DNA from: an uncultured virus (IMG/VR IMGVR_UViG_3300043256_000464)
Taxonomy: Duplodnaviria; Heunggongvirae; Uroviricota; Caudoviricetes
Virus record (IMG/VR): IMGVR_UViG_3300043256_000464
Length of the DNA: 64,000 nt
Direction: 5' to 3' (one strand)
Notes under the pieces: generated by a model
The model's database searches: none
The model's input: the letters and a program-made list of their open reading frames with translations, nothing else
What the model was told of the DNA's origin: nothing
Made by a program: the position numbers and the translations under genes
Shown here: positions 1,470 through 62,801 of the stretch, in pieces
Layout of the letters: every line of letters begins with the position of its first letter
Position numbering within the stretch: position 1 is the stretch's first letter

Positions 1470-1477
1470 ACTTCCTC

Positions 1478-5229: not shown

Positions 5230-5248
5230 GATGCTTCTCCCTATTGTG

Positions 5249-5815
5249 CTACCCTCTCCAAATTTCTATGCGAATCAACTTTGGTCTGAACGATGGCCTG
5301 TATTTCATAAAATTTCGTTCTTCCATTAGATTATCCGCGTATTCCGGCTCTATTTCAGCGCCCTCATAAACCCCATAATCATGAACTCCGATCAAATCGC
5401 CAGCCCGCGCACATTCAGAATACAGATTCAACTCAAGGGTTTTGTCTCCCCCATCGCAGTAGATGAATACAGGACTCTTTCTCTGCATCCATTTTGCACA
5501 ATGCACAAGCGCCTCGGCTTGCCAGGCATCACCGAACCAAAACGAGGCATTTGGATTTGAAGCAATCCTATGTTGAAGACTGCTGTCTACGACGCCGCTA
5601 TTGATTTCAAGCCCAAGATAATTTTCCACTTTCGGTATCAGGACATCGGCCAATCCGCCAACGTGAACTCCTACCTCAATAAAGCCCCGCGGTTTTTCGC
5701 TCTCAATTACATCCATCAAATAGGCGACTTCTGCGTTAGTGTGTCCGATGTGTAGCCTGTTCGGACTTACCGCAAATTCATCGTCGCGTATTCTGCTTAT
5801 TGAAGGCTCGCTCAT
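5249..5815 (-). CDS. Class I SAM methyltransferase-like (Methyltransf_24/CmcI-like), paralog 1
   Basis: FIEVGVHVGG...YCDGGDK...VHDY. Confidence 0.6.
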   Translation of the reverse strand: MSEPSISRIRDDEFAVSPNRLHIGHTNAEVAYLMDVIESEKPRGFIEVGVHVGGLADVLIPKVENYLGLEINSGVVDSSLQHRIASNPNASFWFGDAWQAEALVHCAKWMQRKSPVFIYCDGGDKTLELNLYSECARAGDLIGVHDYGVYEGAEIEPEYADNLMEERNFMKYRPSFRPKLIRIEIWRG

Positions 5816-7110: not shown

Positions 7111-7145
7111 TATTCTCTGCAAAACTCGCCTGTCGTGTTCATAAT

Positions 7146-7970
7146 CTAAGGAGTGTTCGCCACTGGCTTCCATGACGCTCCCCTTGGACAACTCATACAG
7201 TAGGGAAGGTCGGTTCGTCCTCCAGCTACAGCTAGAATATTGCCAATCTTCCTGTGCTTACCAAACCAATGTTCCCCGATTCCAATCTCTGGGAATGTTC
7301 CAAGATCAAAGTTGCCAACAACATCGTCGCAGCACAGGAGATATTGCCGCCGATGATTAATGATCACCCTTACCCTTGGCTGAGCACAACTCATTCCACG
7401 CGCGATGCTTATTAGCGATTGAAGATCATAGGCCGGGGTAAAGTGCGTTGGTGTGTGATGTGGCTCTGTAACTAAATCTAGCCTAGTCTTTGTAAAAAGA
7501 CTCTGCATCCAATTGGCCCTCTCGCTTTTGATGGGATCTTTCATGTAAAGCGTGATTATGATTCGATCTAAGATTCCATCAAGTTCGGATGCCAATTCTT
7601 CTGTCAGATAATCTCCGTTGGAATTAAGGAAAACTCTACCAAGTTCACTATACGCCCTAACCTTGCGTGCTATTTCGGGCAATCGGTCATCCATCATGGG
7701 TTCGTTGTAATGAGATAGACACACGCCACCTCGAAAACCGAGCGCAAGTGCCTGGTCAACGGCATTATAGATCAAATCTTCGGATAGCAGATTTTTCTCA
7801 AACCATGGGCTGATTTCCTCGCGGTCGGGATGTGAGTTTCGAATGCAAGTCCGGCAAGTTCGATTGCACGATGAAATGGTTTCGAAATCCAAGAAGTCGA
7901 ACAAACCATTCTGAAGATGACGAAACTCACTCACGCGCCCACCCCGGCAACGATTCGACTGGCCCAGCAT
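7146..7970 (-). CDS. Radical SAM/SPASM protein
   Basis: CNRTCRTC, NEP, LCCDD, C-terminal CxxC. Confidence 0.8.
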   Translation of the reverse strand: MLGQSNRCRGGRVSEFRHLQNGLFDFLDFETISSCNRTCRTCIRNSHPDREEISPWFEKNLLSEDLIYNAVDQALALGFRGGVCLSHYNEPMMDDRLPEIARKVRAYSELGRVFLNSNGDYLTEELASELDGILDRIIITLYMKDPIKSERANWMQSLFTKTRLDLVTEPHHTPTHFTPAYDLQSLISIARGMSCAQPRVRVIINHRRQYLLCCDDVVGNFDLGTFPEIGIGEHWFGKHRKIGNILAVAGGRTDLPYCMSCPRGASWKPVANTP

Positions 7971-8652
7971 AATTCAGTGGATGTGATTGGTTTGGTATCA
8001 AGCCTGATTCCCTATAGACCCTTATTTTTTCTAATGTTCTTTCTTGGTCATCCCAGGTATGGTGTACCAAACAATAGGGTGGCATCAAATCAAAAACGCT
8101 TGTGGAATCGTGAAGGTCGCCCGCTATTTCATCTCCGATCATCAAAGTGTATGCTGGAGGCTTGTCAAATGTCCACAAATTAGTATGGGGTCGCCACGCC
8201 CAAAGCGAGGTCATGTAGTTGAATTTTTCGACAGGTTTGAGCTTTGTCATATTTGGAAAATGCTGATCTTGACCCCACAGATAAACCCTGACAACCATGA
8301 CAACGTTCTGTTCTACCTGCGCGAGAATTTCCCTGGTGTGTCTTCGGAGCAAGTAATTCGGACGACTGTCGCAATCGTCGTGAATTATCCAATCCGCTTC
8401 GTATTCTTTGGCCCACGAAATCAAAAAGTTGACGTGATCGCTGTCATTGTTTCGCCAGTGTCCACGTGCCAGAGGAGTGCGTTCTGGAAAATTTCTAATC
8501 TCGACATTCGCGAAAGATGAGGCAATCTTAATTGTGTTATCTTCGCTTCCGCCATCTGCCACAAGAATTTTGTCGGCAATCTCTTGATAGGCTTCACAAA
8601 AAGGCCCAATGTTGCGCTCCTCATCCCTGGTTCGAACCATGGCGATTATCAC
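7927..8652 (-). CDS. Glycosyltransferase family 2
   Basis: DEERNI, ADGGSEDNT, DDCD. Confidence 0.8.
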   Translation of the reverse strand: MIIAMVRTRDEERNIGPFCEAYQEIADKILVADGGSEDNTIKIASSFANVEIRNFPERTPLARGHWRNNDSDHVNFLISWAKEYEADWIIHDDCDSRPNYLLRRHTREILAQVEQNVVMVVRVYLWGQDQHFPNMTKLKPVEKFNYMTSLWAWRPHTNLWTFDKPPAYTLMIGDEIAGDLHDSTSVFDLMPPYCLVHHTWDDQERTLEKIRVYRESGLIPNQSHPLNYAGPVESLPGWARE

Positions 8653-9671
8653 TGAGGTCTCTCCGGGCCACCGGATAGCTTTTCGTAGGCTGCATCATCT
8701 AGGTATTCGTAATCCATCTTGATATTCCAAATTTCTTTTCCTCCAGTTGCTATAATCTCGGGCGGTGTCAAAAACTCAGAACCATTTTCTCGCCAACCTC
8801 GGTACTCCTCCGCTGTAGGAAAGCGTTCTCTCTGTGTCATCCATGCCATTCTGCGCATAATAGCTTCAAACCGCCAGTCCGTTACCATGTTGGCAGGATA
8901 ACCTAGCTTTACGCAACCTTCCTGAACATTCTTATGCCATTCGCCCAAGTCGAAGTTTTGCATGCCATCCAATAACTCTGAGGGCAATTGCTTCCCCGCC
9001 CAGCTTGTAGAAAATACGCCACTAATAAACTTCCACTCCCCTTTCTGGATCAGAACATTGTCAATCACAAAACCCTGTCGCCATCCATACTCGGGATAAT
9101 TGTTTTGCTCTCCCCGGCTCCAGTATTCATGGAACCAGGCCATGCCGTTATCGATAGCATAAAATCGCGAACCCATGTCAGTACACCAATTGCGCGCGCT
9201 TCTATCTTGATTGCCGGTCAAGATATCCAGAAGCGCGATCCGAGCCGCGTCCGGATGGGTGTCTATTACTTCCTTTGCAACCTCGTCAGCTTTTCTTAGG
9301 CTTCCGAGCTGACTCAGTAGCGCACCTCTCCATTCATCGCCGGGAACACCGGGCGAAAAACCTCGCATCACCCAGCACATTCGTTGCCATCCCTCTACGT
9401 TTTCTAGGCCAAAGCGATCTTCATGCCAGGGATACTGACCATCCTTCCACATACCCACGCCCACGGGATTACTAACTGGTTGCCCTCCAAGCCCTTCATC
9501 CAATAGCCAGAATGCGGCCTCGGTGAGCGCCTTTCGTCGTTGATGAACCTTGGGGCGAGAGATCACCATGACCTTCAAAATTAAGTCTCCGGTAGTGCTT
9601 CTCCAACGGGCGACTTCGTTGGCCCCTCCTGTGCCATCATCGTAGACTGTGATTAGTTCCATTTTGCCCAC
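8649..9671 (-). CDS. PI3/PI4-kinase/HipA-like kinase-fold protein
   Basis: LDILTGNQDRSARNW...AIDNG catalytic-loop-like motifs. Confidence 0.6.
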   Translation of the reverse strand: MGKMELITVYDDGTGGANEVARWRSTTGDLILKVMVISRPKVHQRRKALTEAAFWLLDEGLGGQPVSNPVGVGMWKDGQYPWHEDRFGLENVEGWQRMCWVMRGFSPGVPGDEWRGALLSQLGSLRKADEVAKEVIDTHPDAARIALLDILTGNQDRSARNWCTDMGSRFYAIDNGMAWFHEYWSRGEQNNYPEYGWRQGFVIDNVLIQKGEWKFISGVFSTSWAGKQLPSELLDGMQNFDLGEWHKNVQEGCVKLGYPANMVTDWRFEAIMRRMAWMTQRERFPTAEEYRGWRENGSEFLTPPEIIATGGKEIWNIKMDYEYLDDAAYEKLSGGPERPQ

Positions 9672-10414
9672 TCCTGCAATGGCTCAGACCGACCCGCATT
9701 CAATGGTATAGCAGTCCCATATGACGGCAGAGCTCCGGATGCTCTGTAGCGTTTTGTTTTGGATATCATAGTTTCATAGTCTGGCCAACCATAATGTAGC
9801 AGAGCAAACGGGTTATCCAGAGTATGCCAAAGCCCGGTATCTGGATGGGGGAAATTTGGTCGCGGGATTCCGCGATGAGTCGTAGTTCTGTAGTGACCAT
9901 CTATTTTGTCAGGTCTGTGTGCCCACCCAAAGTAACCCTCCAAACTCAGTGAAGGATAGTATCTATTGCTACCCACGATGTAGATTCGACCAAGACCAAT
10001 CACATCGTCCTCTGTCATTTCCATTTCGGATCGAGCGGCCTCTTGTAGCGCCAATGTAGGAATGCTGTCGCATTCGTCAGTAATTATCCAATCGGGATTG
10101 TGCTCCATCGCCGCTTCATAAGCAAAATTATGATGTTTCCCCAAGGGAGTCCACGCATGGTCATCAAAGTGCATCAGCCCCCTGAAATGAACGATATGGA
10201 CTTTGGCAAAACCCTTAGCCAATTCCACGGTTCTATCAATGCTTCCGCCATCGCAGATCACAATACTATCAGCAAATCTACTATAGACTTGGCAGTAACG
10301 TTCAATGTTTCGTTCTTCGTTGAGAGTACAACACATGACTACAATATTCGTGTTTCTCTGATCAACACGCTTGATCGCACGATCAACAAATTTGATCAAT
10401 GGCATCAAGTCCAT
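9653..10414 (-). CDS. Glycosyltransferase family 2 (paralog of 7927-8652)
   Basis: NEERNI, CDGGSIDRT, DECD, LHYGW. Confidence 0.8.
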   Translation of the reverse strand: MDLMPLIKFVDRAIKRVDQRNTNIVVMCCTLNEERNIERYCQVYSRFADSIVICDGGSIDRTVELAKGFAKVHIVHFRGLMHFDDHAWTPLGKHHNFAYEAAMEHNPDWIITDECDSIPTLALQEAARSEMEMTEDDVIGLGRIYIVGSNRYYPSLSLEGYFGWAHRPDKIDGHYRTTTHRGIPRPNFPHPDTGLWHTLDNPFALLHYGWPDYETMISKTKRYRASGALPSYGTAIPLNAGRSEPLQEWAKWN

Positions 10415-10839
10415 TCTCTCCTACCCTGCTGATCTGCATGCATCCCGGTACCATATGCCTCAAGTGTCGTATGGTAGATATAGCAGACTGCAAGTTTCTT
10501 GGTTCGATCTGAATCCTCTAATCTGCCGGATGTTGCTCCAACAATGATGCCCGGACTTCCGCATGTACACATTATTGCTACGTGCCCTACGCCCTCTGGA
10601 CCATCAACATGATAAAGAGGATCAACATAAAGAAAGTGCTCACCGTGATAATCGGCGGCCTCATAATGTTCCCATTGTTCTCTGTTTGGATCGGCAAAAC
10701 CAGAGGTCGCGGCTTTGATGTATAACCATTTCTCTTTCTTAACTACATGTCCGCTATCCAACGTTACTTCAACAGGACTTCCCCTCTGACGAACTATGCC
10801 AAATTTATATCCCTTACCCTTAAACGGATTGTGGCTCAT
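10405..10839 (-). CDS. Hypothetical protein
   Basis: ORF coupled to neighbours in the operon. Confidence 0.5.
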   Translation of the reverse strand: MSHNPFKGKGYKFGIVRQRGSPVEVTLDSGHVVKKEKWLYIKAATSGFADPNREQWEHYEAADYHGEHFLYVDPLYHVDGPEGVGHVAIMCTCGSPGIIVGATSGRLEDSDRTKKLAVCYIYHTTLEAYGTGMHADQQGRREWT

Positions 10840-11101
10840 ACTCTGGCCTCGAATTGATCATTGCCTCAAATTCTTCTACCATCGATGCTCCAACCTCTGA
10901 TTCGTCTACAGCTATCCTAAGCATTCTCTTGGCTCGGTTCTGGAAATCTACCAACAAACCTAGCTCAATCAGTGGCACGCGATGCAAAATAAGAAGATCA
11001 TAGAATTCATCTAATTCATCTAGCCATCGAGCCATGTTTCTCTGGTGACGCGCGGTATGAGTTAAAAGCCTGTCAGCCGCGCCTCCCCAATTGTCTGTCA
11101 T
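10820..11101 (-). CDS. Hypothetical protein
   Basis: Overlapping start/stop in the operon. Confidence 0.5.
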   Translation of the reverse strand: MTDNWGGAADRLLTHTARHQRNMARWLDELDEFYDLLILHRVPLIELGLLVDFQNRAKRMLRIAVDESEVGASMVEEFEAMINSRPEYEPQSV

Positions 11102-12039
11102 TTCCCTGCTAAGCCAACCTCTTCAAAAATCTGATCAATTCTTGCACCCCAAGTGTGTTCCTCTACTGCCTCTCGCGCCTTGCGCCCGATTTTTTCAGCT
11201 TCGTTCGGATGATCAAGTAACCATGCAACTTTCTCTACTGCTTCTTCAAGCGTTTCGAAGCCAAGAAAATCCTGGCCATCCTGGAAGAGCTCCACCAGAT
11301 CCGGAACCTTATTCATCACAGCGGGTAAACCGAACGCCATCAACTCAAAACACCTGGCGGTTGTGTCCTGCAAACTGGACCAGTTTAAGCCAACCCGCGT
11401 ATCGTGATAAATTGCCCTGGCATCGTCATAAGCAAGACCCAATTTGTAGAATACCTCCCTGCCTTCCTGGATCAACCTGCCGATCAAATCATTGCGATGG
11501 CCGTACTGAAGCCCAATCAGCGCTGCGTCGAACCTGCGCTCGGAAAAGGGCGTTTCTGTTGGAGTGTGCCACTGCTGAGAATATGCATAGGGTAGCCAGA
11601 TATCGCCACGCTTCAAGTAAGGCGTTTGCATACCAAAAACATAGTCGGCCCGAGCTTTCTGACCATCGTAAAAATCACCCAGAACGTGTGGGTCAGACAA
11701 CACCAAGGCCAAGGGAGCAGAGACGGGTTTCCCCATTGCTACCAATCCAGCATTCACTTCGAGCCACAAATCAGGTTCCCAGGGTTTTTTTGTTTCGAGC
11801 ATCGGATAGGAAACCATCGGAGGATTTGTGATAGATGTGGGATGATCCGGTTTTCGTGAATAGCTTTCCGGAAGCACCATACCTCCACCCCATGGAATAT
11901 TTTTGCCTGTCCATGGACCCGCGCACCAAACATCTACGTCTTCACGATAGATCAAAGCCTCCCAGAAGTAGCGACACATTGCAACTGGATACCAGATGCC
12001 CGTGATGATTACTCGAGTTCGACGCCTCCTGGCACTCAT
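11098..12039 (-). CDS. CgeB-like GT-B glycosyltransferase
   Basis: RCFELMAFG...LFQDG...IGRKAREAVEEHTW. Confidence 0.8.
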   Translation of the reverse strand: MSARRRRTRVIITGIWYPVAMCRYFWEALIYREDVDVWCAGPWTGKNIPWGGGMVLPESYSRKPDHPTSITNPPMVSYPMLETKKPWEPDLWLEVNAGLVAMGKPVSAPLALVLSDPHVLGDFYDGQKARADYVFGMQTPYLKRGDIWLPYAYSQQWHTPTETPFSERRFDAALIGLQYGHRNDLIGRLIQEGREVFYKLGLAYDDARAIYHDTRVGLNWSSLQDTTARCFELMAFGLPAVMNKVPDLVELFQDGQDFLGFETLEEAVEKVAWLLDHPNEAEKIGRKAREAVEEHTWGARIDQIFEEVGLAGK

Positions 12040-12737
12040 ATCAAAATTTCATCCACCATGCCATTCTCCAAGCATTCCTCGGCGTTGAACCAACTATCAC
12101 GCCTTAAGATTGCTTTTATGTTTTCTTTAGATAAGCTAGACTTGGAACCATAGAAATCGTACAGGCGCTCCATCATCATGTCCATGACATGCAAATCGTC
12201 CTGAAGCTGCTCGTAAGTTCCGTATCCCCACGAACTGAGCTGGTGTACTAACATAAAACTAGAGCGTGTGATGAATCGTTTGGCACATGCCATTGAAAGT
12301 AGCGTAGCAGCACTTGCGCATACGCCTTCGACAATTGAATAGATTGGAGTTTGAATCGTTGCTATCTGATCTGCTACATTAAGCCCGGTGAATAATTCAC
12401 CACCGCCAGATTGAATATGCAACCATATCGGAATTTGCGGATAGTCGTCTGGAAGCATTCTGTCAATTCGCTCATTTCGCAAAGTGCCATCGATATCCCT
12501 GATCTTTTTGATGAGATCAAGACAACGATCTGTATTTACTTTGGCATAGAAATAGATGTGATTCGCGCCAGACTGTTCAACCGTCATCGGCACATAATCG
12601 CCACCGGATTGTCTTTCGCTCGCGGTCGAAGGCGGCGATGGATCAACTGCTTTGTTATTATCGACAAACCTTTCTACGCTGTTCACTAATCTTCCCAGCA
12701 ATCCCGTCAAGCTTCCATCTTCAAATCGTTGAAACAT
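12036..12737 (-). CDS. ClpP-like serine protease
   Basis: HIQSGGG, CASAAT, MLVHQ, DSWFNAEECLENGMVDEI. Confidence 0.85.
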   Translation of the reverse strand: MFQRFEDGSLTGLLGRLVNSVERFVDNNKAVDPSPPSTASERQSGGDYVPMTVEQSGANHIYFYAKVNTDRCLDLIKKIRDIDGTLRNERIDRMLPDDYPQIPIWLHIQSGGGELFTGLNVADQIATIQTPIYSIVEGVCASAATLLSMACAKRFITRSSFMLVHQLSSWGYGTYEQLQDDLHVMDMMMERLYDFYGSKSSLSKENIKAILRRDSWFNAEECLENGMVDEILI

Positions 12738-12746
12738 CTTCTCTCC

Positions 12747-13097
12747 TTATGTAGATGTAAATGGTTTGTATGTAGCTCGGTATCCAGCTTGCCTCAATAG
12801 TTCCACCATGACTGGTGCAGCAACGTTATTCCAAGAATGAACAACTATGCGCCCTATTTTGGGTTTCTTCTTCACGATCCAACGAACAACCTCCATCCCA
12901 CAATCTTCACGATTAGAATCAACCCATGTCTCCCCGCCAAGATCATGATCGAGCATCACTAAGTCAAATTTCCCTTTCGCTCTCATAGCATCAATTGCGC
13001 TTGCAGCACTGACAACAATCTCCAGATCGTCGCCGTCGAAATTTTCAAAGGCTTTCTCAATACGCTCCGCACTGTCGTCTAGAAATAAGATTCTCAT
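12747..13097 (-). CDS. Standalone receiver-like domain (cyclic-phosphate-processing type)
   Basis: ILFLDD, LDHDLG, GMEVVRW, VHSWN. Confidence 0.7.
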   Translation of the reverse strand: MRILFLDDSAERIEKAFENFDGDDLEIVVSAASAIDAMRAKGKFDLVMLDHDLGGETWVDSNREDCGMEVVRWIVKKKPKIGRIVVHSWNNVAAPVMVELLRQAGYRATYKPFTST

Positions 13098-13849
13098 TAA
13101 GGCCTCTCAGGAATGTTGACTAGTCCGTGTTTCTTTGCAAAAGCAGCTCTCATACGAACAGTATGCTCATGACGTTCTGGGTTGTATCCTAGGGTTCCGG
13201 CAACTAAATGCTGGATGGGCAGACTTGGAATATCTATCAAGCTAAACCCAGCTTGGGATGCCCGATAAGATAGGTCCACATCTTCGAAATCATTGGGGTG
13301 GAACGTCTCTGTATCAAATCCCGCCAGTGTCTCCCAGGCCTCACGCGTCATCATCAGAAAATGCCCCATCAAATATTCGATGGTCGTTCCATCAAAGTTA
13401 TTCCAGCCACCTTCGGGGCCTATTCTGTTCTGGCCAACTACGATGCCGGTGCCACCTCTAGACCACATAACATCATCAGGCAATTTGCGTTTAATGTGAC
13501 GGAGGAAGTCTCCGTAGATTCGAACATCGTCACTGATAAGACAAACAAAATCGCCAGCAGAGCGTTTGACAGCTTCATTCCAGCCTCCGCCGAATCCTAA
13601 ATTTTGTTCCACGCGTTCAACGCGCACGTCAGGAAGATTGCTGAGGGCTAGTTTGATTTCGAGATTGGTGGAACCGTTATCGAAGACGAGAATTTCAACA
13701 TCGGGGCGTGATCCGTAGAAACGCGTGAGTTCGCTGATTCGATCTTTAATAAGATCGCTACGCGTGTAGGTTAATACAATTAAGGAATGGGTCGGTTCGC
13801 TAGGAGACTGATTCTCCACGGGCCTGCTCCCATTTCTTGAGAGCAGCAA
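13097..13849 (-). CDS. Glycosyltransferase family 2
   Basis: FDNGST, NLGFGGGWN, FEDVDLSYR. Confidence 0.85.
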   Translation of the reverse strand: MLLSRNGSRPVENQSPSEPTHSLIVLTYTRSDLIKDRISELTRFYGSRPDVEILVFDNGSTNLEIKLALSNLPDVRVERVEQNLGFGGGWNEAVKRSAGDFVCLISDDVRIYGDFLRHIKRKLPDDVMWSRGGTGIVVGQNRIGPEGGWNNFDGTTIEYLMGHFLMMTREAWETLAGFDTETFHPNDFEDVDLSYRASQAGFSLIDIPSLPIQHLVAGTLGYNPERHEHTVRMRAAFAKKHGLVNIPERP

Positions 13850-14651
13850 GACCGTCTTGAGGCGAGTATATCGGTATCATAAGTTTCTTCGCCTGATCGA
13901 CGTTCAAGCCTCCCCGCGTAGGCCTTTGCGCGATTCCCTTGATCTCACTGGTCGGTAGGATGAGTTCAGGATCGTAGCCAAAAGCTTCAGCTATCATCCT
14001 GCCCCATTCAAAGCGGCTCAGCGTGAGGTCGCCTGCAATATGAAGGATTTTCGGCATCGTTTTATAAGCTTCTAATGCCGTCCATCGCGCAGCAACTTCA
14101 AGCAATGCCTCGGATATGTGAGGTATATAGGTAGGTACGCCGTAAAGATTATCGGGCAATTCTTTTTCAGCGCCCAATTCGAGGATATCCCTGATTGAAC
14201 GCACAAAATCAATTCTATCACTAGCCACACCGAAGAGGTCAAGTGTACGAACAACAATAGTGGACTCGCGTACTCGTGCTGCTGCTTCGCCTCCGAACTT
14301 CGACCACCCATAAATATTCAGGGGGCCAGGAAGATCATCTTCTTTGTTTGGGCCATCAGCTCCATTAAAAACATAGCCGGTCGAGATCTGAATTAAGAGT
14401 CCATCGAATGCCAATCTGAGGTTGGCCGGTCCGCGCAAATTGACAGCCATCACATCGTCGTAGTTTTCCTTATCTTCCGCGCCGTCAACATCAGTCCACG
14501 CGGCACAATTGATAACCACACCTGGTTGGATTTGTTCAAACGCTTTTTCTATTTTCTTTGGTTTGGTGATATCGCAACGCAGAGGTTCGCACCCGAGTTC
14601 AACAAGTGCAGATCCAAGCCTACCTTCAGAACCGGTAACGGCAACTTTCAT
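13800..14651 (-). CDS. rmlD: dTDP-4-dehydrorhamnose reductase-like SDR
   Basis: VTGSEGRLG, NCAAWTDVDGAE, YGWSK. Confidence 0.75.
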   Translation of the reverse strand: MKVAVTGSEGRLGSALVELGCEPLRCDITKPKKIEKAFEQIQPGVVINCAAWTDVDGAEDKENYDDVMAVNLRGPANLRLAFDGLLIQISTGYVFNGADGPNKEDDLPGPLNIYGWSKFGGEAAARVRESTIVVRTLDLFGVASDRIDFVRSIRDILELGAEKELPDNLYGVPTYIPHISEALLEVAARWTALEAYKTMPKILHIAGDLTLSRFEWGRMIAEAFGYDPELILPTSEIKGIAQRPTRGGLNVDQAKKLMIPIYSPQDGLAALKKWEQARGESVS

Positions 14652-21369: not shown

Positions 21370-21400
21370 CAAAAAGCCCCGCTCGGGGCGGGGCTTTTTG
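21370..21400. terminator. Bidirectional intrinsic terminator ending the array transcript
   Basis: CAAAAAGCCCCGC-TCGGG-GCGGGGCTTTTTG. Confidence 0.85.
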
Positions 21401-21406
21401 CCAAAA

Positions 21407-22030
21407 GAGTCAGCATGCTCTTGATGGATTTCATTGGCCAGGTGGCCGACATTCTTCTGATGGGTCTCATAGTCTCAGTGGTCGGCATAGGCAAGCTGGG
21501 TTTCGTCAAGTACGTAGCCGACATCCATCGCCTGGGCTTCATTCATTTACTGGTCGGCATACACAGACTGGGTTTCATCCTTTTAGTGGCCGACATCTAC
21601 AGAGTGGGATACATTAGTCTCTTGGTCGGCATCTTCCGATTGGGTTTCATCACTTGTTTGGCCGACATGCCTATCCTGGGGTTTTCATTAGTGTTCTAGT
21701 CGGCATTACCTCGTTGGGTTCCATCCGTTCTATGGCCGACATTCAGTGGGTGGGCTTCATTTAAGGTGTGGTCGGCATATACCAGATGGGTTTTATCCTC
21801 CCCTTGGCCGACATCCTATGAATGGATTTCATTTGCCTCATGGTCGGCATAGTTGAGATGGGTTTCATAACTCTTGTGGCCGACATTCAAAGTCTGGATT
21901 CCATGATTTTCGTGGTCGGCATCTTGTACATGGGTTTCATTGTATCAATGGCCGACATTCGTTAAGTGGGCTTCATACTTCCCGTGGCCAGCATGGGAGT
22001 GGTGGGATTCATAATTAAGCTGGCCGACTA
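21407..22030 (-). repeat. TIGR-like dual-repeat array A, 17 units of 36 nt
   Basis: Plus-strand period TGGCCGACAT or TGGTCGGCAT-N8-TGGGTTTCAT-N8; on the minus strand CCA-9 nt-TGAAACCCA-9 nt-TG; 18 edge and 17 loop repeats counted; one unit is 38 nt. Confidence 0.9.
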
Positions 22031-22855
22031 AGCTACTTGCTCCAACTCGCGATCTTCATGCGATTTGGTAATAGGTAGCCCTTCAATCTCGCGCCATTCT
22101 AGCCATAAATCACGCAGCAGGGTTTTGGCCACTTTTCTCTTGGCCTTACGATGCTGGTGACTATCAGTTTCAAGTTCTTTCCATCTATACGAGGTAGGTA
22201 CGTTCTCGCCTTTCACGGCAGGGATTGGCTCTGGATACAGCTCGCGCATCCGTTCTCTATCTGCATAATATCCAGATGGTCCTGCGACATAGGCTGACTT
22301 CTGAGCCTTAATAAGGCTATCGGCAATGTTCCAGCAAAGAGCGCGGCCTTCGCGCGAGAAGTGATTCTTTTCTCCGCTAGAACTTCTTTCCATGCGTCCA
22401 TGGAGAGTGCCATTCGTTGACAGGTTGCCATCGATATCCATGACGGCCCCCATCAAATATCTCCATAGCTTCGAAACAGTATCAAAGCGACCAATGTCAT
22501 CGATCATTGCCAAAAGCTGAGCGGCTGTTGAATCTCCAATTCCATGAATTCCTACAAGCCATTCATAAATAGCCCCGAACTCTGAATTAGCCGCATCAAT
22601 CAAATCTTTCAGAGCTCTCTTTTCGAGCATGCGGATACCAACAGGACCTTGTTTGCCCTCGACAAGATCATCTAGAAAATGTAATTCCGCTGGCCCGTGG
22701 AGATTTGACTTCCCCTTCTCGATGGCATTCAAGCGTAGTTCATGCCTCAGGCGCATTTTCCTGAATTCTATGAAGAGGAGGTAGTGTTGCCAAGTGAGCT
22801 GGCGCTTTCGGGGCTTCGGATCGGGTCTAGCGTCTTTTTTGTTTTCGTCTGACAC
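22028..22855 (-). CDS. Nop/IS110-C-terminal-domain protein without nuclease (TasA-like), 275 aa
   Basis: IHGIGDSTAAQLLAMIDDIGRFDTVSKLWRY...HRKAKRKVAKTLLRDLW; no RuvC/DEDD; GTG start after AAAGGA; flanked by arrays. Confidence 0.8.
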   Translation of the reverse strand: MSDENKKDARPDPKPRKRQLTWQHYLLFIEFRKMRLRHELRLNAIEKGKSNLHGPAELHFLDDLVEGKQGPVGIRMLEKRALKDLIDAANSEFGAIYEWLVGIHGIGDSTAAQLLAMIDDIGRFDTVSKLWRYLMGAVMDIDGNLSTNGTLHGRMERSSSGEKNHFSREGRALCWNIADSLIKAQKSAYVAGPSGYYADRERMRELYPEPIPAVKGENVPTSYRWKELETDSHQHRKAKRKVAKTLLRDLWLEWREIEGLPITKSHEDRELEQVA

Positions 22856-22867
22856 TGCGTTTCCTTT

Positions 22868-23069
22868 CTGTCGCGACATCGTTTCGGTGGGTTTCATCAT
22901 CATCATGATCGCGACATCCAATCAATGGGTTTCATTTGTTTTTTAGTCGCGACATACCTTAACTGGGCTTCATTGTGTTCCTGGTCGCGACATTGGATAA
23001 TTGGGTTTCATTTCGAATATGGTCACGACATTCTTCAGATGGGTTTCATTGCTTACTTGGTCGCGACTC
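22868..23069 (-). repeat. TIGR-like array B, 5 units of 38 nt with palindromic edge repeat
   Basis: TGGTCGCGACAT-N8-TGGGTTTCAT-N8 repeated. Confidence 0.9.
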
Positions 23070-23071
23070 CA

Positions 23072-23761
23072 TCATTTTAATTTGAGGCCCGCTTTCTCAA
23101 TAAAATCGTCGCGGCCATTTAACCAAAGATCCATGGCTTTATCCATATTCTCTATGGCTCTGGGTGTGATCTTGGCTAGGCCGCTCTCGAGTGCGTTGAC
23201 AATGTGAAAAGCGTGCCATGCGATAGTCATACCAGAGTGGCTTTCGATAGCTTTTTGCTGTTTCTTTGTTACCTTCTTACCAGCAACACTATTAAGGCCG
23301 TTTTTGTTAGGGACAAGTTTTCCATTTCGCCCAAGCCCAAAACTAGCAAAGACATCCTCGACATCTGGCAATGGCATGATGATGATCTGCGAAATTTCTT
23401 CATCGGTCTTTCCAACCTCTCGCAATCTCGCCATGTTGCGCTTTTGATCATACGGATCGTATGGTCTTCCATTCCTTGAATTGTCGCCAATGGAAACAGC
23501 CAGACGCTCGGCATCATCCTCAAAATGCCGCCTCATAACAATCACTGTTCCGGAATGCTCTCGCAGATGTGCGAAATACCTATGCCAGCCGCCAATCAAG
23601 CGATTGTTCTGGCAGACCATCATGGGCGGAAGTTCTTGACCCATCCTTAAAGTATCTCGCATCCCTCGAACATGGGGATTAGAAACATCATTTCGGGGTT
23701 GCAACCAATCATCCAAGATGATGTCTAACAGGGGCATTTCAACTTGCTTATCTTGAGACAT
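23072..23761 (-). CDS. ParB/Srx-like N-terminal domain protein with HTH
   Basis: LQPR...LPPMMV...LIGGWHRYFA, NSRNG, then a helical HTH-like segment. Confidence 0.75.
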   Translation of the reverse strand: MSQDKQVEMPLLDIILDDWLQPRNDVSNPHVRGMRDTLRMGQELPPMMVCQNNRLIGGWHRYFAHLREHSGTVIVMRRHFEDDAERLAVSIGDNSRNGRPYDPYDQKRNMARLREVGKTDEEISQIIIMPLPDVEDVFASFGLGRNGKLVPNKNGLNSVAGKKVTKKQQKAIESHSGMTIAWHAFHIVNALESGLAKITPRAIENMDKAMDLWLNGRDDFIEKAGLKLK

Positions 23762-23781: not shown

Positions 23782-23863
23782 AGACCCGCATTCAGCCAAT
23801 GGATTTCATACGAATGGTGGCGGGCATCTTGTGTGTGGTTTGCACTATCATTCTGGCCCAACA
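23782..23863 (-). repeat. TIGR-like array C1, 2 diverged units
   Basis: AGACCCGCAT-N8-TGGATTTCAT-N8-TGGCGGGCAT-N8-TGGTTTGCAC-N8-TGGCCC. Confidence 0.7.
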
Positions 23864-23900
23864 AAAGGGAATGATACTATACATTCTAATGTTCCACAAG

Positions 23901-24018
23901 CAGTCGGCATGTATTTATTGGATTTCATTCTTAGCATGGCCGACATCGAGGGTCTGGATTTCATCATTCGAATGGTCGGCATGGATTTTTTGGATTCCAT
24001 CATGCACTTGGCCGACAT
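23901..24018 (-). repeat. TIGR-like array C2, 3 units of 36 nt
   Basis: Alternating GTCGGC/GCCGAC edges with TGGATTTCAT loops. Confidence 0.85.
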
Positions 24019-24443: not shown

Positions 24444-25583
24444 TCACCCACCGATACTCAGCGGCATGATGACGTGAACGTAATCATCGCGCCCAATCGC
24501 CCTAAACATGCCAGGGGATTTAGGACTCTTCGAATCAATCGATATGCTCCCGCTGCCAATAGCCTGCAGGAACTCGCTCAGCATCTTCAAGTTAAAGCCA
24601 ATCTCCATTCCGTCGCCCTCAACTGTCGCATCGACCACGCTCTCAGATGCTCCGATTTGACTATCTAAGGCCGTGACCGTAAGCGTTGCTGGAACCCCTT
24701 CCTCGCTCGAAGGTGATATCAAAAGCCGTCCGGAGTTGGCGGTTTCCTTCGCGATGATCAGTGCAGTCTTGCAGGCGTTTTTGAGAGCCTTGGCATCCAC
24801 AACTACACGGACTTCGTATTCGTCCACAAGAATGCTCTCTAGGTCCGGGTAGCTGCCTTCCAATAGGGCTGACTCAATATTGGCATCCTCGACTGTGAAG
24901 CCAACGCGCTTGGCATCGGCAGAGACCGAAAGCTTAACTGTCTCGTGGCCATCGATTATTTTCTTGACCTTTGCCATCGAGTTGGCTGGGACAACAAACG
25001 AAACTGGTTGCTCGGCTGCTTCGTTCATCTTCATCGTGCGCTTCGCAAGCCTAAACCCATCAGCCCCGGCGAATTCCGCATGATCACCTTCAAACGAAAA
25101 ACGCATGCCGGTCAATATAGGCCTGCCGACATCCTTAGATGCACAAAACAGAACTTCCTTAAGAACATCCTTGAATTCGGACACATTGAATTCCATTACT
25201 GCGCTTGTTTCGTTAATCAGATCCCGCATGGGATATTCTTCAATCGGCATGCACTTGATTTTCATCTTGTGACCAGCACACGAAACGTTGAGTGCATTGC
25301 CTTTCGATTCATAAGCCATTGAAACAATTTGATCTGGAAAAGTCGATATGAGCTCTGAAAGGGTTCCGGCAGGGACGGTTATCTGCCCCTCTTCTTTAAT
25401 CTTGGCGGCGTCTACCCAGCGAGTGATAGTGATCGACATGTCAGTACCGGATATTCTGAGTCTTCCATTCTCTGTTGACAGAACCATGTTCTTTAAAATA
25501 GGGAGGGTGCTTTTGGCCGGTACGATGTCGGCAACGTCTGCCAGTGCTGATTTGATTTCTGTTTGTGCAATTTGCAGCTTCAT
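24444..25583 (-). CDS. dnaN: DNA polymerase III beta sliding clamp
   Basis: KSTLPILKN, GTD, RPILTG, ADGFRLA, YPD, IGFN, VIMPL. Confidence 0.92.
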   Translation of the reverse strand: MKLQIAQTEIKSALADVADIVPAKSTLPILKNMVLSTENGRLRISGTDMSITITRWVDAAKIKEEGQITVPAGTLSELISTFPDQIVSMAYESKGNALNVSCAGHKMKIKCMPIEEYPMRDLINETSAVMEFNVSEFKDVLKEVLFCASKDVGRPILTGMRFSFEGDHAEFAGADGFRLAKRTMKMNEAAEQPVSFVVPANSMAKVKKIIDGHETVKLSVSADAKRVGFTVEDANIESALLEGSYPDLESILVDEYEVRVVVDAKALKNACKTALIIAKETANSGRLLISPSSEEGVPATLTVTALDSQIGASESVVDATVEGDGMEIGFNLKMLSEFLQAIGSGSISIDSKSPKSPGMFRAIGRDDYVHVIMPLSIGG

Positions 25584-28401: not shown

Positions 28402-28627
28402 GGCTCGACCTCTCGCTTATCGTAGGTGTTTGCGTACCATTCTGCGTGCTTCTTTTCCAACAGATCTTCATTCATGCCCACAGTTCTTGCATCGGAGAAT
28501 AGCCCCCAGTTTACCACTAGGCCGCACCAATTCCGTATGAGTCCAGCTCTTCCTTCGAGTAAGCCAGTGCTTCTCAAAGCATTTGCTGCATCGGGCTTTG
28601 TAGAAGCGCGTACTGCTAGACATTTGA

Positions 28628-30024
28628 TTTCGCTAAGTGACCTCATCGTAAGTATCATCCAGCATCGAATAGTGTATCTCCGCCGTGTTCCCTATGGGGT
28701 TTCGCTGGTTCAGGCAAATCCTCATCCCATTCAAAACGAGGACGGAAATCCCCATCGCCATCTGAGTAGATTGTGACATGCCGAGAGCTACCAATGCTGC
28801 CAAGCATTTGCATTCTCTTTAGTATCCCAAGGAAGTGTGGAACCCATCTTGTAGGAACTTCGCATCGCAATGTGAATTTCATACTGCTCATTTGTTTTCC
28901 TTTCGCTAAGTGACCTTATCGTAAGTGTCCCACTACATACTTGCGGACACGATGTCTGATTTCGGGCTGAACGTAACCGGGCAAACGGCCTCGAATATCC
29001 TTGATTTTGGCTCTAGCCCTTTTGCGGGTCGGTTCGCAAAACTGAGTAGGGTGCCATTCGTCGGGAACAAATAACACTTTTGATTCAATCACCCAAACGT
29101 GTTTGCGCATATCTTTCACCTTCACTTTCGATATGATGACTTATCGTAAGTGAGCCGATTCAAAGCCTGCAAGCTCAGGCAAGCTCTCAGCCCACTCGGG
29201 CCATATATCTTTCTCCCAATCAAAAGCTCGTTGCATAATTTCTTCTGATGGATAAGTAGCTTCGTTGTCGGCCTTGAATTCTTCGCTGTTCATCCAGTCG
29301 GGGCCATAAAGTTCTCGGCATAAGGCTTGGCCCCAATCCCATCGGCGTTCAAGTTCATTGTCCCAAACGACTCCATCGTAGCGATTAGCCATACGCTTAC
29401 CCCATTTATTCAAATCTTCCCAAAAATACTTAGGCATCTTCCTCAACCTTTCTTGGCATCCGTCCCATAGCAATGCCCATAACCCACGGGGCCAATCTTC
29501 CAAGCGGCACATTCCAAACCAGCCAAAACAAGAATTGTCTAATCATCACTTTTCCTTTCACTTATGCTAACTATCGTTACCGTAGATATAGCATCCCAAC
29601 AGAACGGGCTTACCAACAAACCAGCGCCAAACGAGCCAAGGAATATATAGGACTCCTAAAGGCAAACGATAATGCAAAGGCATGTCAGGACAACTCCAGA
29701 GATAGTTCGTGATCCGCATATTATGAACGATTCGTTTACTCATTTCTGCTCCTGTGGGCGGGACAGGCATCGAACCTGCTCCTGCGCTTTTACAGAGCGG
29801 TATGCAGCCCTTACACCACCCGCCCTCTTATCTTGCTGCCAGCGCATCCTCGAGTTGGCCAATCTTGTAAGTGCATTGCATTTCTGCTTCCATCAGTTCG
29901 TCAACGTGGCACAAGTCGCCCATGACGTTCTTTGCCCATCGCCAAGCCAACCACATCGCAAAGCGTTCTCTCAGTTTCTTCATTTCATTTTCCTTTCACT
30001 TCTTTTGATGACCTTATCAGAAGT
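28628..30024. repeat. Dispersed ~26-bp gene-boundary repeat
   Basis: TTTCGCTAAGTGACCTYATCGTAAGT at 28628 and 28901; variants at 29126 and 30007. Confidence 0.7.
28655..28891 (-). CDS. Hypothetical phage protein
   Basis: AAAGGA RBS; GSSR...SDGDGDFRP. Confidence 0.55.
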   Translation of the reverse strand: MSSMKFTLRCEVPTRWVPHFLGILKRMQMLGSIGSSRHVTIYSDGDGDFRPRFEWDEDLPEPAKPHREHGGDTLFDAG

Positions 30025-34173: not shown

Positions 34174-37100
34174 TCATTTCCCTACTTCCATAATGTGATA
34201 GTCTGGTCTTCCGTGCAATTCATAATTCCAATTCGCTGGAGCCTCATCCTCATCAAATGAATACTGCTCCGTTGTCTTGAAGCCAATGCCTGAATAGTAC
34301 GCTGGCAAAAACGGACCAAAGGCCTCCGCGTAATTCACTTCATTTTCCCTTACGCTCTGCTCTATCATCTTAAGAACAGTGCCTTTTGGGGCTCCATCGT
34401 TAAATGCAGCAGTGGCTTCTATTCTACCATCGCCGTGATCCAACACAGCTAGTCCGGATTTGCCATCTTCGCTAAGATACAAAGCTTCCATATCAGCTAA
34501 TTCTTTTTCGCTATAGTGCGTGACGAAGGCGGCCCGTTTGTTGTCCTCCATAGCATTTGTGAAAGCCTGGTTGAATTCATCCGCAGTCGCTTGGACACCT
34601 GGGCTTTTACTCGCTTCGGGTTTTGTTTCGGCTGCTCCCGTATGAGAATATCCAGCTTGTGATCCTCCACGTTGGCCTTTTCTTCCCTCCTGTCCCTCAT
34701 GCCCCTCTCCGTGACGCTCGATTGCTCCATCAAGAATGCGTCCGACTGACACGGGATTTTCCCCAATTGGGAATGCAGGATCAATAATCTCAATTCCTTC
34801 TGGCCAGTTGTCTCGATACGCTTCTTCAGCGTTCACAACCAGCATTTCGCCAGCCCCTACGGGCAGCAACACAATAACTCGCCTATCATCGGAGGGCTTA
34901 TAAGTGAAGGCTCGGGAAATCTCCGGCGATTCCTCAATAGCCCGATCGACAGACCTACGCAAAGTCGCGAGGTCTTCTGTTTCTTGTTTATTAAACGTAC
35001 CCAAACCCCAACGATGGAATCTGGGAGCCTCGCCACTAACCTGAGTCACCATCGAGGAAAATAGATCGGCTACATATTCTCTGCGCAACCTAATTGTATC
35101 TTCTCCATAATGCTGACTTGCTGCAGAAATATATCTATCGCTTCCGATCATCTCACTATTCAAGTCCATTGTGATTTGAGGTACATCATTTGCGTCTCTT
35201 ATATCAGACAGAACATCGTTGTGAACCCAGTGTCCGAGTTCGTGATATGCGAGTTCTTTCCACTTAGAGCCGCCAACGCCCTTTTCTCCCTCCAATCTAT
35301 CGGTCATCCAGATCGTCTCGTTCTCATAGCTTCCCACCACACCAGAGCCAGCGCTACGATCTGCCAAATATGCAGCAAGCTCATAACGATTAAGCGCTGG
35401 ATAACGCTGGCCCTCTATGACAGCATCGGCCATGTCCAGATAGCTATTGGTGATCGTCAAACCGCGTGGTTTGATGCCAGTTTTCTCATAGAATTCCTTA
35501 AGTACCTCAATTGAAGAATTCCTAAACTCAACACCACGAGCCTTATCTTCCTCATCGAATTCTTCATCGAGCGCCAATTTTCGACCGAACTCAATCGTAT
35601 TGTCGTCTTCAGGATTCCAATCTCCATTCGCGCCATTTCCCGCATGGACTGATTGATCGGTACCTGTGCCTGGATGAGGACCAGGACCAAGGTGTTTCTC
35701 TATGATTTCCTCAGATTCCTCGGGTTCCGATTCTGTAATCAGCTCACCCAATTCTGTCATTCTCGGAGCAGTCGATACAACTAAACCCTTGTCGATATTA
35801 GATGTCCTCCATTCGTTTCGGCTGAGGCCGAGCAAGCGCATTGTGTCAACGCCATTGACTTGCTTTAAAGGGCGGGAAATAGGATCAAGTGAGGGGGGTA
35901 TGTCCTCAACTACAAATATCCTCAGGCCAACTAATTCATTGTCGCGTCCACTTGGTATTTCCACGCTAGCTCTTTGATCTACGCGAGTATCCATCATAGA
36001 TCGAAGTGTTTGTTTCTGCTCACTTGTAAATTCATCTGTTCCAGAAATAACAAAAGTCTCTTGGCCATACGCAAAAAATGTGTGGCGAATCAAACCAGAC
36101 TGAATAACCTGAGTCTCACTGATGGTGATATCGTCTGTATCAACCCCGCTTACTTCAGAAAGCGCGTGTTGACTGGTTTCCTCATGAACACTACCTTCGG
36201 CAAGAGTGCGGCCATCTGGCGCGATCCAAGCTGCATTCACGATATTTTCTGGTGGCGTCAATCCAAATTTCTTTTCGATAGCATCCGCATAAGATTTCGA
36301 CAACGCTTCATCGAATGGTTGCTTTTGCCATGTTTCAGAAGTCAATCCAATCTTGTCTGAATCGGCTTTATCTCCATCATGGGTATATCCTGGTTGAGAT
36401 CCACCCTGTTGCCCCAGTCGGCCTTCTTGACTTTTGTGACCCTCGCCATGCCTGAAAATAGACGAAAGCCTTGCAAAGAGTCCCCCTATTTCCTCACGAA
36501 TGCTTTTCTTGCCAATTACATCGCTTAGGAATTCCTGCTCCTGTCCTCGCAGCCTTCGCTCGCCGCGGGCACGCGCATCGCGCACCTTCTGATCTTCCGG
36601 ACTTATGAATTCAGGATTTTCGCGTGTTATCTTTCCTAGCCATTCCCTTGGCACACTGTCCCAGTCAATCAGCAAAGCAAAAGCACCGTCCTTTGGTTCC
36701 AAATCAATACCTTCTTTCTTAATGCCCTGGCCACCGATATCGACCTCATCTAGGTTTTCCCTTTCAACGAGCAGTTCCTTCCGGGCGCGCTCTGCCATGC
36801 TTTGCACTTGATCTGGCTTCCAGGCTGCAATGCGATTGTCCGAATCGATAATTGGATCGAACGCCTCAAAGAAATCTTTGGCCTCGTCAACAAAGCCAAG
36901 GTAAAGACCTTGGTTGCCAGTCTCGGCAATCTGGAAAGCTTCGGCCATCATCTGGGCCCCAAATCCTTTTCCAGATTCCTTAGCAACAAGATGCTGGAGC
37001 TCTAGCCAGTTATACCGTTCGATATCTTGATCTTCATCTTTGCTTTGGTCGTCATCTTTTCCGGGTCCTAAAATAGAATACTCGCCAGCTTCGTTGACAT

Positions 37101-40100
37101 CGGCTACGATAAACAAATAGGACGATTCATCCTCAACTCTCTCGATTGTTTTGATCAATTTGTCGTCTTTACGCTGATAGCCGCGGCGATAGACATCAAT
37201 CTTTACAATGGCCTCAGCAGGGATGCTTTGGCTAAACATCAATTCCCCAAATTCAGACACTTCTGGTTCGCTACCAGCTAGAGAACTATCAATTGTGATA
37301 AGTGCATAATTCTCTTCCGAACTCCGCGATGCGAAATGCAATGCATCTCTGCGATCTGAAGCGGCATAAACAACATCGGATACTCGGTTGTCTTCATCGG
37401 CAAAGTTTAGGAGCAATCCAGATTCCATAATGCTTTGGGCAGCTTTGGCTCCGGTTCCATGGAAGATCGATTCGGATGGTTTCTTTTCTGATCCTTTACC
37501 TGCGCCATTTCCACCATGCACTTCCTGACCCGTTCCTGTACCGGGATGCGTCGGCGCATAGTGACGCAAGATACCGCTCTTTTGTTCCTCAATAGAATTG
37601 ATCAATTCGTCAACTCTAGGAACCTTGGAGCGCGGTAGCATCCTGGCGAACGCAACGATTTCCCCGAGGTCGTTTAAAGCAAACCTGTGATCGTATCCAA
37701 CTAGGCCAGCGCTGGCCCTTTCGATATCCGCATCAATTCGCAAATCAACTTCATCTTCTGTTATGACCGGCAATCGCTTAAGCGCTACGTTCCGCATCAG
37801 ATCTTCGATTCCTTCGTTGCCGAAAGTGATCAGGGAGCTTTGTTCAATCGATAGATCTTGATAGGAATCGGGCTGTGCATAAAGCAAGTCAAGTGTTTCT
37901 TGAATTAACTCACCCTGCATCTGCATCCGTATCTCAGAGCGGTATTCTTCATCACCGCGCGTCTGTTCAAGCTTTTCAGGATCAGGCCACTGGAGAGCTT
38001 CGTTCAATAAATCGCTTCCCCCGCGCGGCCACTGGCTTAGGTCATCTGCGAGCTTTTGGGCATCCTGTTCGTTGGGTGTCTTGTTTATGTCGGAGAACGG
38101 CTCATGGTTTTCTTTGCCAAACAACTTCTTGGTTGGTTTGAAGCCGGTCTCTTGTCTTCTGCTCGAGCCTCCAGGATCAAGCCCGGCGATGTCAATATCT
38201 TGATCTTGCCCAGATTCTCCGGAAGCGAGTATCCCACGCTCGACAACCATCCCACCTTTCTCAATGACAGTCACCGGAGTTCCAGCTTTTTCGTATTCCT
38301 CTATTTCGTCTGGATCGATTCGGACTATCTCGCGGAACTCATCATCGCCTGCCATGGTTGGGAATGCGAATGCAACTACAACTTCTTTGGCGCGCTCGAT
38401 GTATGACTTTTCTATCTCAGATCCACTAAGCGCAGCAATGACTTTGGCTCTGTCGTCTCTATTGCGCTGAAGCATTGGGATATAACGGCTGGTATTTTTG
38501 ATGCCCATGGCATCAGTTCCAAGCACATATGAAGCCGTTAAATCAGCTACATATTCGCTCATTACCGATTCGCCTGTATAGCCCAGATCCTCAACAATGT
38601 GCCTGTAAATAACAGGGACTTCTATTCCTTCGTTGCCTGCTCCGATTATGCGCCTATGGGCCCAATGGCCCATTTCGTGAGTGATAACCCAGTCACCAGC
38701 ATCTTCATTTACCTTTTCCCACTTCTCTAGAGATTCATTGTTGATCCACAGCAAGTTGAAATCGTCGGCTTCGCCAGTTTCTCTATTACTCATGAAGCCC
38801 GCTACCTGTTCCTCCAAGATCGGGTTTACTTTCATCAATGCAGCTAATCTAGTGCTTGGACTGGTTTCAACTTCAGGAACTATGCCAGAAATAGAATCAA
38901 TAAAAGAATCGCCAGCATCTTCTATGTCGTCTGTGATGAGCATGAAGCTAGGAGCTATCCCGGTTTTTTCAGTGAAGTCATTAAAAAGCCCTCTGGTTTG
39001 TTTGAGTCTTTCCTTGTCGTCCATCCCCCATATGACTTTTCGCTGACCTGCTTCTGTTCGTCTGCGTCTAGCAGCTTGGCGTCTTCTAGATGTCTCTTCC
39101 TTAGATCCACCTACGTGATGAAATCCGGTTTGGCTTCCGCCTCTTTTGCCAGGACGACCATGCTGATCCTCGTGATCGCCATGTCTCAAAGCAAATGGGC
39201 CATCCTCTAAGCTGATCACCTTACGGAGTGGTCCGTAGACGATAGATTCGCCCCGCAGGAGCGTTGATAGCTGTTCTGTGGATAGAATGACGCCTTCGAA
39301 CACTTCCTCTTCGCTGGAGCGCTCTTTCAATGCCTCGCGAAGTCGCTTGATGATCGTCTTCAATGACTGCTTCTCTCCGATTTTTTTGGCTTGCTCCGAA
39401 TCGCCTTCGCCCATTTTCTTGGGAGCCTCGCCATCTAGGATCGCCCATACACGATTGATTTCATCTTTGGCATCCTCGCCCTCAGCCCAGATACAGAAAT
39501 GCTTGAAACAGAACCATGCTCGTGCCATTCCGTTGGCCCAATGAACATCCACTTCAGGAGGCTTTGAACAATCCATGCACTTCTTCCGACTATGCTTCGC
39601 TCGCTCTTCTAGCACAATCCCGCTCTCGACAAATACCCTATCGCCCATGCCTCGCGGAAGATGGACAGTAAATACCTTTTCAAATTCGTTGCGACCAACA
39701 ATGAAGAGATCCGCCGATATGTGAAATGGCTCGATTGTTGGCAACTGAGCAGGAACAGAATCAAGATCATATGCAACTGTGACGTGTGGTTTAAATACAG
39801 AAGGGGGTGAGAATTCGCTAACCGGCAAACCCTCAGCAACCGCTTGGTAATAAAGATCTGATTGAAGCCGAAGCAATGCAGGACCAGGATTCGCCAGCCA
39901 CACCAACGCAAGGGAGTCTCCCCCTTCCAACACCGCCAAGCTGGTTAATTCAATTAGCATCTGTATGGGCGGCATGAGGTTGGCCACCAAAGCAGCAATT
40001 GATTCAGTAGGGCAATTCTCAATATACAAAAGCGTCATATGAAACTTATCCGGTTTAACCGGCTTAAGCGTCATGTCGAGTTCTTCTAGTATCTTGGTTT

Positions 40101-61595: not shown

Positions 61596-61779
61596 CTAGG
61601 ATCACTTTCCAAATAATTCATCATGATCTATTTATCCTTTGTGAGTTTTTCCGAATCGGAGACAACGTTTATCACCATGTCGGATACACGACGCCTCCTC
61701 GGACAATCGCCTCCGATTCAGATGCCGCGGATTGACAGGGAGGGGACAATCCAAAGAAGGATAGACATCGGGGTTTTGG

Positions 61780-62715: not shown

Positions 62716-62727
62716 TTACGATGACAA

Positions 62728-62783
62728 GGGCGCGGCAGAGGAAGGCACGGGTAATCATTGGATCTATGGGTATTGCCGCGCCC
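62728..62783 (-). ncRNA. Single stem-loop tigRNA-like unit
   Basis: 10-bp stem GGGCGCGGCA/TGCCGCGCCC enclosing CCA-TAGATCCAA-TGATTACCCG-TGCCTTCCTC-TG. Confidence 0.65.
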
Positions 62784-62801
62784 GTTACATTCTAAGCTAA
62801 A

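Follow-up and report, generated by a model that had tools for sequence, protein, structure and literature searches.

What does an RNA-guided protein achieve in a phage when it carries no nuclease, and why does a ParB-like gene stand beside it? The available parts of Faure 2025 (PMC12045711) and Xu 2026 (10.64898/2026.09.09.750476) name the aims of nuclease-less TasA and the role of TasParB as open questions. Both are raised by a locus in the 64,000-nt stretch of viral DNA analysed here (the window), which is part of a tailed phage with terminase, portal, head protease and major head protein genes (PHROG). The original prediction for this locus was RNA-programmed loading of a ParB-like clamp that silences, tethers or partitions DNA rather than cutting it. 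Here we propose a non-cutting TIGR-TasA system directed at competing phages or prophages, in which the ParB-like protein would amplify the block, and we give this reading about an even chance of being correct.

The features of the locus are listed in Table 1. In minus-strand order, it consists of an array of 4 units, the parB-like gene, an array of 5 units, tasA, an array of 17 units and the terminator. The ParB-like gene thus sits between two arrays, as had been predicted. The three arrays hold 26 guides of 8+8 nt each. An invariant A ends 52 of 52 spacer slots, so the variable parts measure 8 nt and the repeats 10 nt. The first edge repeat of the downstream array includes the stop codon of tasA. 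Because the edges of this array alternate, a guide forms its 3-bp closing stem with the edge that follows: in 14 of 17 units the pairing with it is 3/3 Watson-Crick, whereas a unit's own edge gives 2/3. Such cross-edge pairing is a feature described in the TasR structure paper, and the pattern would hardly arise by chance. The arrays are of the TIGR-TasA kind, with edge and loop repeats in alternation, TG...CCA boxes, cross-edge pairing and a terminator. The parB-like gene operonic with tasA, the arrays around and between them and the 10-nt repeats mark the whole as a tasParB locus.

Table 1. Coordinates of the TIGR-TasA locus, its upstream context and the guide with a candidate target.
Feature	Position	Strand	Remarks
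Upstream TIGR array	23782..24018	-	3 units of 36 nt, 83-nt interruption, 1 further unit, truncated edge
ParB/KorB-like gene (tasParB type)	23072..23761	-	229 aa
Middle TIGR array	22868..23069	-	5 units of 38 nt; edge repeat 12 nt, self-complementary
tasA (solo Nop domain)	22028..22855	-	275 aa from probable GTG
Downstream TIGR array	21407..22030	-	17 units: 16 of 36 nt, 1 of 38 nt; two alternating edge repeats
Guide unit	21597..21632	-	Spacer A 21622-21615 + reverse complement of spacer B 21604-21597 = AGAGACTACTACAGAG
Intrinsic terminator at locus end	21370..21400	-	13-bp inverted repeat + T tail
dnaN (beta clamp; Pfam), upstream context	24444..25583	-

The prediction had also placed the locus in an operon downstream of dnaN. 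We found the same order and strand, with the end of dnaN ~420 nt ahead of the first array. This is only collinearity, and nothing ties dnaN to the system: the promoter scan stayed at chance level (5 vs 5.7), and a search for minus-strand terminators from dnaN to the first array found none. The 83-nt interruption of the upstream array (23828-23900) is AT-rich and promoter-like, but gave no hit in the promoter scan. Two public DNA runs contain this stretch of DNA. In one of them, from another study, a contig tracks 22121-22955 with 53 differences and different array letters, which indicates that the locus is present in a related population with other spacers.

We placed the probable tasA start at GTG 22855, which is preceded by AAAGGA and is where homologues begin to align; the stop is at 22028. 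TTG 22921 was rejected as the start, since it falls within the middle array and outside those alignments. TasA passes the NCBIfam model TIGR_Tas_endo (NF052498; 128.5 bits vs a cut-off of 100) and matches TasR 9MTY over the Nop part only (E 3.6e-17). Its AF2 model (pLDDT 84) shows the Nop fold alone, the first helix being preceded by ~18 residues, and reaches Z 19.0 to 9MTY and 17-18 to TasH. No RuvC or HNH was found in TasA by Pfam, PHROG or the AF2 model, which bears out the prediction of a Nop protein lacking both. An IS110 transposase was rejected: NF033542 gave 21.8 bits against a cut-off of 140, and the model shows no N-terminal domain that could be the DEDD domain. According to the available text of Xu 2026 (10.64898/2026.09.09.750476), a TasA from another locus represses transcription by itself, and natural TasA targets are mostly undetermined.

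The ParB-like protein alone had no Pfam match, and a word-indexed search found no protein other than itself. An HMMER search returned 915 relatives at E 0.001; 140 of the best 150 were aligned with the query into a 141-member family, whose profile matches M. xanthus ParB (E 2.5e-8). The structural model (pLDDT 96) matched KorB 8QA9 (Z 14.1, rmsd 8.4, 169 aligned) and ParB-CTP 7BNK (Z 11.7, rmsd 1.6, 92 aligned). The neighbour had been described as ParB/Srx-like with an HTH. The ParB fold stands, with Srx ranking below KorB and ParB (Z 8-9), and the HTH appears only moderately supported by the model: three helices at 103-139 form an HTH-like part with Z 4.5 to the KorB DNA-binding domain. C-terminal helices are also present.

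ParB proteins are CTP-dependent clamps that load at specific sites and then spread. The fold of the window's protein is that of the ParB CTPases, with both Box I and Box II (GxxR); it keeps QPR, LPP, GxxR (G58-W-H-R61) and N94, and the nucleotide-binding motifs are kept across the clade. On this basis it is probably an NTP-gated clamp; the nucleotide specificity of the fold is not readable from sequence (PMC12704722). Two family-consensus residues, D57 and H97, are replaced by G and N, at positions at least 90% conserved across the family. These departures, together with a long branch (see below), mean that this copy could be decaying or altered. A canonical ParABS partition ParB was rejected, with TIGR00180 at 14.7 bits vs a cut-off of 58.45 and no ParA among the scanned ORFs.

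To survey the neighbourhoods of the clade, we gathered loci by consensus motif scans, which would not match the window's own ParB. The scans listed 199 loci, 196 of them with a clade member, counting redundant copies and including 37 of 117 metagenome loci with short flanks. Among the 196 listed clade loci, 122 have Vipr, 9 have TasA (one a fragment) and 2 have both; Vipr and/or TasA lie within 1.6 kb on the same strand in 133. Vipr identity was confirmed against PDB 36PP (E 4e-23) and SUSP1. Pentamer arrays only were seen in 30 of the 196, and no partner in 33. Specifically, 7 of these 33 have at least 1.2 kb of flank on both sides. In 4 of the 7 (three distinct) we found a Cas12f/TnpB-like ORF (~400 aa) with CRISPR-type repeats, and the remainder comprise one long fusion and two loci without a visible partner. 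The Cas12f-like ORFs weakly match TnpB (E 7e-9 and 6e-6, none for L101) and Cas12f 9NZQ (E 0.005), all below cut-off; where 9NZQ has its RuvC-I Asp, they have a non-acidic residue in the alignment. Judged by these neighbourhoods, the ParB/KorB-like clade is not TasA-specific but common to TasA, Vipr and Cas12f-like systems.

Several of these loci have further features. The Cas12f/TnpB-like genes directly before the ParB-clade gene, with no evident RuvC-I Asp, are L079:2829-3989, L093:6151-7401 and L101:6547-7737; in L079 and L093, the ParB gene and the array are separated by a shared non-coding stretch that may be a tracrRNA. In L061 and L145, Vipr, a ParB-clade gene and GGY arrays are flanked by TasA-like genes, one or two in number, and no TIGR array was seen there. 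The Vipr loci L065, L068 and L074, and likewise L063, L105 and L109, have pentamer arrays of GTY or GCR, not GGY. Non-canonical VIPR motifs have been reported (10.64898/2026.10.21.760802).

The neighbourhood survey supported the pairing with tasA. In 8 other loci (L097, L103, L127, L133, L166, L181, L186 and L215; ~6 distinct), the parB-like gene immediately precedes tasA, to which it is often translationally coupled (L103, L127, L166, L181). On the TasA tree, the ParB-linked proteins need 4 changes, all forced by starred branches (57 rows), and at least 4 separate TasA lineages show the parB-tasA order. The 59 viral Tas-selected loci contain no Vipr and no full-length clade member adjoining tas; they gave 4 weak partial matches, mostly in longer ORFs. 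The TasA of the window forms a fully supported clade with 11 of these 59 loci, and all 11 lack the ParB gene. The TasA-ParB pairing is thus not obligate, since these closest TasA relatives do without it and the clade stands mostly beside VIPR.

In 9 of these 11 relatives, and only in these among the scanned loci, a conserved and unrelated 170-200-aa family occupies the ParB slot before the upstream array (L001-L005 and L007-L010; e.g. L001:5166-5711). This slot gene (A5) showed no match to ParB, Vap1, Pfam or Atlas and is a candidate new TasA accessory. That 11 relatives lack the ParB gene and 9 carry the slot gene indicates that TasA does not need the ParB gene.

The ParB of the window falls within a group of Vipr-linked copies (9-row clade, support 98-99), on a long branch. 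Free ParB trees, which left out two split or truncated ORFs, ORFs <190 aa and unlabelled loci, need 5 changes for the TasA-linked copies, but one clade for all of them remains acceptable under the AU test (p 0.078; 44/83 rows). Repeated recruitment by TasA is therefore only suggested.

These patterns bear on what the ParB-like protein does. It could simply regulate its own locus or phage early genes through a fixed HTH-bound site and never act at guide targets. A role independent of the partner would explain the three unrelated effectors and the exchange with an unrelated slot gene. KorB, VirB and BisD are ParB-fold gene regulators, and distant coliphage relatives of the protein are annotated as transcriptional regulators, with no nearby Vipr or Tas gene in one record checked. 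However, the translational coupling to tasA described above suggests joint stoichiometry, and no Vipr or TasA partner carries a nuclease domain, whereas a mere regulator might accompany cutters too. We consider this reading, the main rival to ours, somewhat unlikely.

The gene could also be a passenger, brought in at common insertion hot spots or by shuffling and left over from VIPR, with no link to TasA. Its divergence and long branch within a Vipr-linked clade, the lack of a ParB gene elsewhere in the window's TasA clade, and the side-by-side occurrence of both systems in L061 and L145 would be consistent with this. Against it, the gene has an intact frame and is embedded between two arrays that are themselves intact and transcribed in its direction, the gene order is found again in separate TasA lineages, and the window has no Vipr or GGY array. 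We consider an accidental association improbable.

To ask what the guides recognise, we read each target as spacer A followed by the reverse complement of spacer B, our interpretation of the published rule. In the window, 0/26 guides had a self-target in either geometry with gaps 0-4 and at most 1 mismatch; the search covers 64 kb of the 118-kb contig. Sites with 2 mismatches were found for 8/26 guides, vs 2-7 in 12 controls. The complete TIGR-ParB phage G001 also had no self-target, its best matches having 2-3 mismatches. Self-matches in four VIPR-ParB phages were near control level in three and slightly above in one, in which 4/8 short guides scored at least 0.8 vs 5/40 controls. RNA-programmed partition or tethering, by which guides would turn sites in the genome of the phage itself into movable parS sites for clamp loading, could draw on the ParB fold with GxxR, the HTH-like part, the C-terminal helices and these slight excesses, but it is highly improbable, because the lack of self-targets at up to 1 mismatch argues against partition, as do the control-level matches in G001 and the three other VIPR-ParB genomes and the absence of ParA among the ORFs that were scanned and annotated.

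A foreign match was found for one guide. In 2.0 Mb of fetched loci, 1/26 guides had perfect matches (controls 0 and 0; ~0.1 expected). Guide 21632 has two perfect matches and one single-mismatch match, without a gap, in a 12-bp tandem of L038, a related phage with a TasA of the same clade as that of the window. This site lies inside an O-like replication-initiator ORF (E 6e-34), just before the DnaB helicase gene (E 3e-66). The other 25 guides had no match at up to 1 mismatch in 643 kb of 11 related phages, in which re-paired guide controls gave a perfect match in 1/8 sets. The motif is absent from the window (best match 3 mismatches), and the 523 candidate half-pairs taken from 40 further loci included no other guide to it.

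The 16-mer AGAGACTACTACAGAG occurs in at least 106 viral stretches, compared with 8 stretches for the sequence of a second guide and 6 when the two halves are swapped. Among the listed sites, 102/106 share one reading frame, in which the longest ORF reads ETTTE, and 31/106 are tandem. We found that 73/79 ORFs belong to one family (66 clusters at 90% identity), and 13/13 tested ORFs, namely that of L038 and 12 chosen from the list, have initiator or DnaD-like PHROG matches. By its design the scan picks up those codons, so the abundance of the 16-mer may reflect the common peptide (ETTTE), not a DNA element. We regard the 16-mer in the initiator gene as fairly likely to be the true target of guide 21632, on the evidence of 1/26 guides. 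Lambda-type origins lie inside the O gene. By this analogy, the AGAGACTACTACAGAG site may be an origin element. The locus offers a specific, directly testable candidate pair of guide and target (8+8 nt without a gap), the target lying in phage initiator genes.

We favour silencing of competitors because a TasA from another locus represses alone, the nearest fold of the neighbouring protein is KorB and the one candidate target lies in initiator genes of other phages. Thus, of the outcomes first envisaged, silencing rather than cutting gained support, and partition and tethering lost it with the missing self-targets. In the proposed mechanism, the arrays would be cut into 36-38-nt guides, and a TasA dimer would open the 16-bp target (8+8 nt, no gap) and stay bound, a step carried over from other TasA and TasR proteins. 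At least one guide would be aimed at the linker region of lambda-O-like initiator genes, where binding may block initiator-helicase transcription or origin firing. The ParB-like clamp would load at, or be trapped by, the RNA-guided complex and widen or stabilise the block, kept there much as KorA holds KorB. It would be an exchangeable amplifier common to TasA, VIPR and Cas12f-like systems. Since the three partners have unrelated folds, it may read opened or bent DNA, not a protein surface.

The occurrence of one accessory clade beside three unrelated guide systems predicts ParB-like activity across all three. If so, it would be a compact means of making any RNA-guided binder a longer-range silencer. 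In its widest form, the clade would be a universal plug-in for non-cutting binders (Nop, RAMP and dead Cas12f-like), with the block spreading from guide-opened DNA and, in this phage, aimed at the initiator/origin region of rivals. This generalisation is possible but tentative. If true, it would give the first RNA-programmed sliding-clamp silencer and be among the first natural TasA targets.

Other genes of the window are described here for completeness. A second Tas-like gene (61780-62715, minus strand) has an N-terminal HNH (Pfam E 1.5e-6) and a weak Nop match (NF052498 E 6e-4, below cut-off), with no dual-repeat array beside it. Hairpins at 62716-62795 and 61650-61722 flank this gene and, with box-like motifs and ~9-nt inserts, are like single stem-loop guides; no window targets were found for them at up to 2 mismatches. 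Stem-loop TasH are rare according to the available text of Xu 2026 (10.64898/2026.09.09.750476). At 28416-29153, a 14-28-nt intergenic motif (CTTATCGTAAGTG-like) recurs at 4 gene starts, 225-273 nt apart, and is a probable phage regulatory site. A large cluster of nucleotide-sugar, glycosyltransferase and epimerase genes spans 984-14651 and 62802-63875, and a 2026-aa ORF (34174-40254, minus strand) has no PHROG match.

How does this locus compare with known systems? The original prediction could not say whether the pairing had been characterised. It is already in print: the available parts of Faure 2025 (PMC12045711) describe parB-like genes in one operon with tasA, with arrays on either side and in the middle, and present an AF3 model, with no experiment, and those of Xu 2026 make no mention of ParB. 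The pairing is thus reported yet uncharacterised. The window resembles the tasParB loci of Faure 2025 in its solo Nop TasA and parB-like operon, in arrays upstream, between and downstream, and in 10-nt repeats. It differs in the 38-nt period and 12-nt edges of the middle array. Furthermore, no function or target is given in the available parts of that paper, whereas here we describe a candidate natural target and a mostly VIPR-linked clade. The TasA and dead TasR repressors of Xu 2026 share nuclease-less RNA-guided DNA binding and repression, which are predicted here, but no accessory protein is tested in the available parts of that work.

VIPR (10.64898/2026.04.26.720920; 10.64898/2026.10.15.759431), as far as the available texts go, is similar in its phage-borne non-cutting guides against rivals and in a boosting accessory gene, and the same ParB clade stands beside Vipr in 124/196 listed loci. 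It differs in its unrelated effector (RAMP) and guide code. The accessory gene needed against a satellite in those texts is not the ParB-like one, and SUSP1 Vap1 was rejected as the window's ParB-like protein, being a different protein. ParB was not found in the VIPR paper texts; Fig. 5A and data S4, outside this scope, may list the clade as vap. In the open literature, with subscription journals, figures and bioRxiv supplements outside, no ParB linked to VIPR or dCas12f was found, and a search by title and abstract start gave no TIGR targets at origins.

The best structural match, KorB of the KorB-KorA pair of RK2, is described in the available text of PMC13768133 as a CTP clamp that brings about silencing once a site-specific partner holds it. 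KorB differs in loading at a fixed operator and in also partitioning with IncC, and the clamp role here is predicted from fold. Compared with the papers searched, two points appear new. The first is a ParB clade common to three guide systems, on which Faure fig. S14, VIPR data S4 and supplements may bear. The other is a candidate natural TasA target in phage replication-initiator genes.
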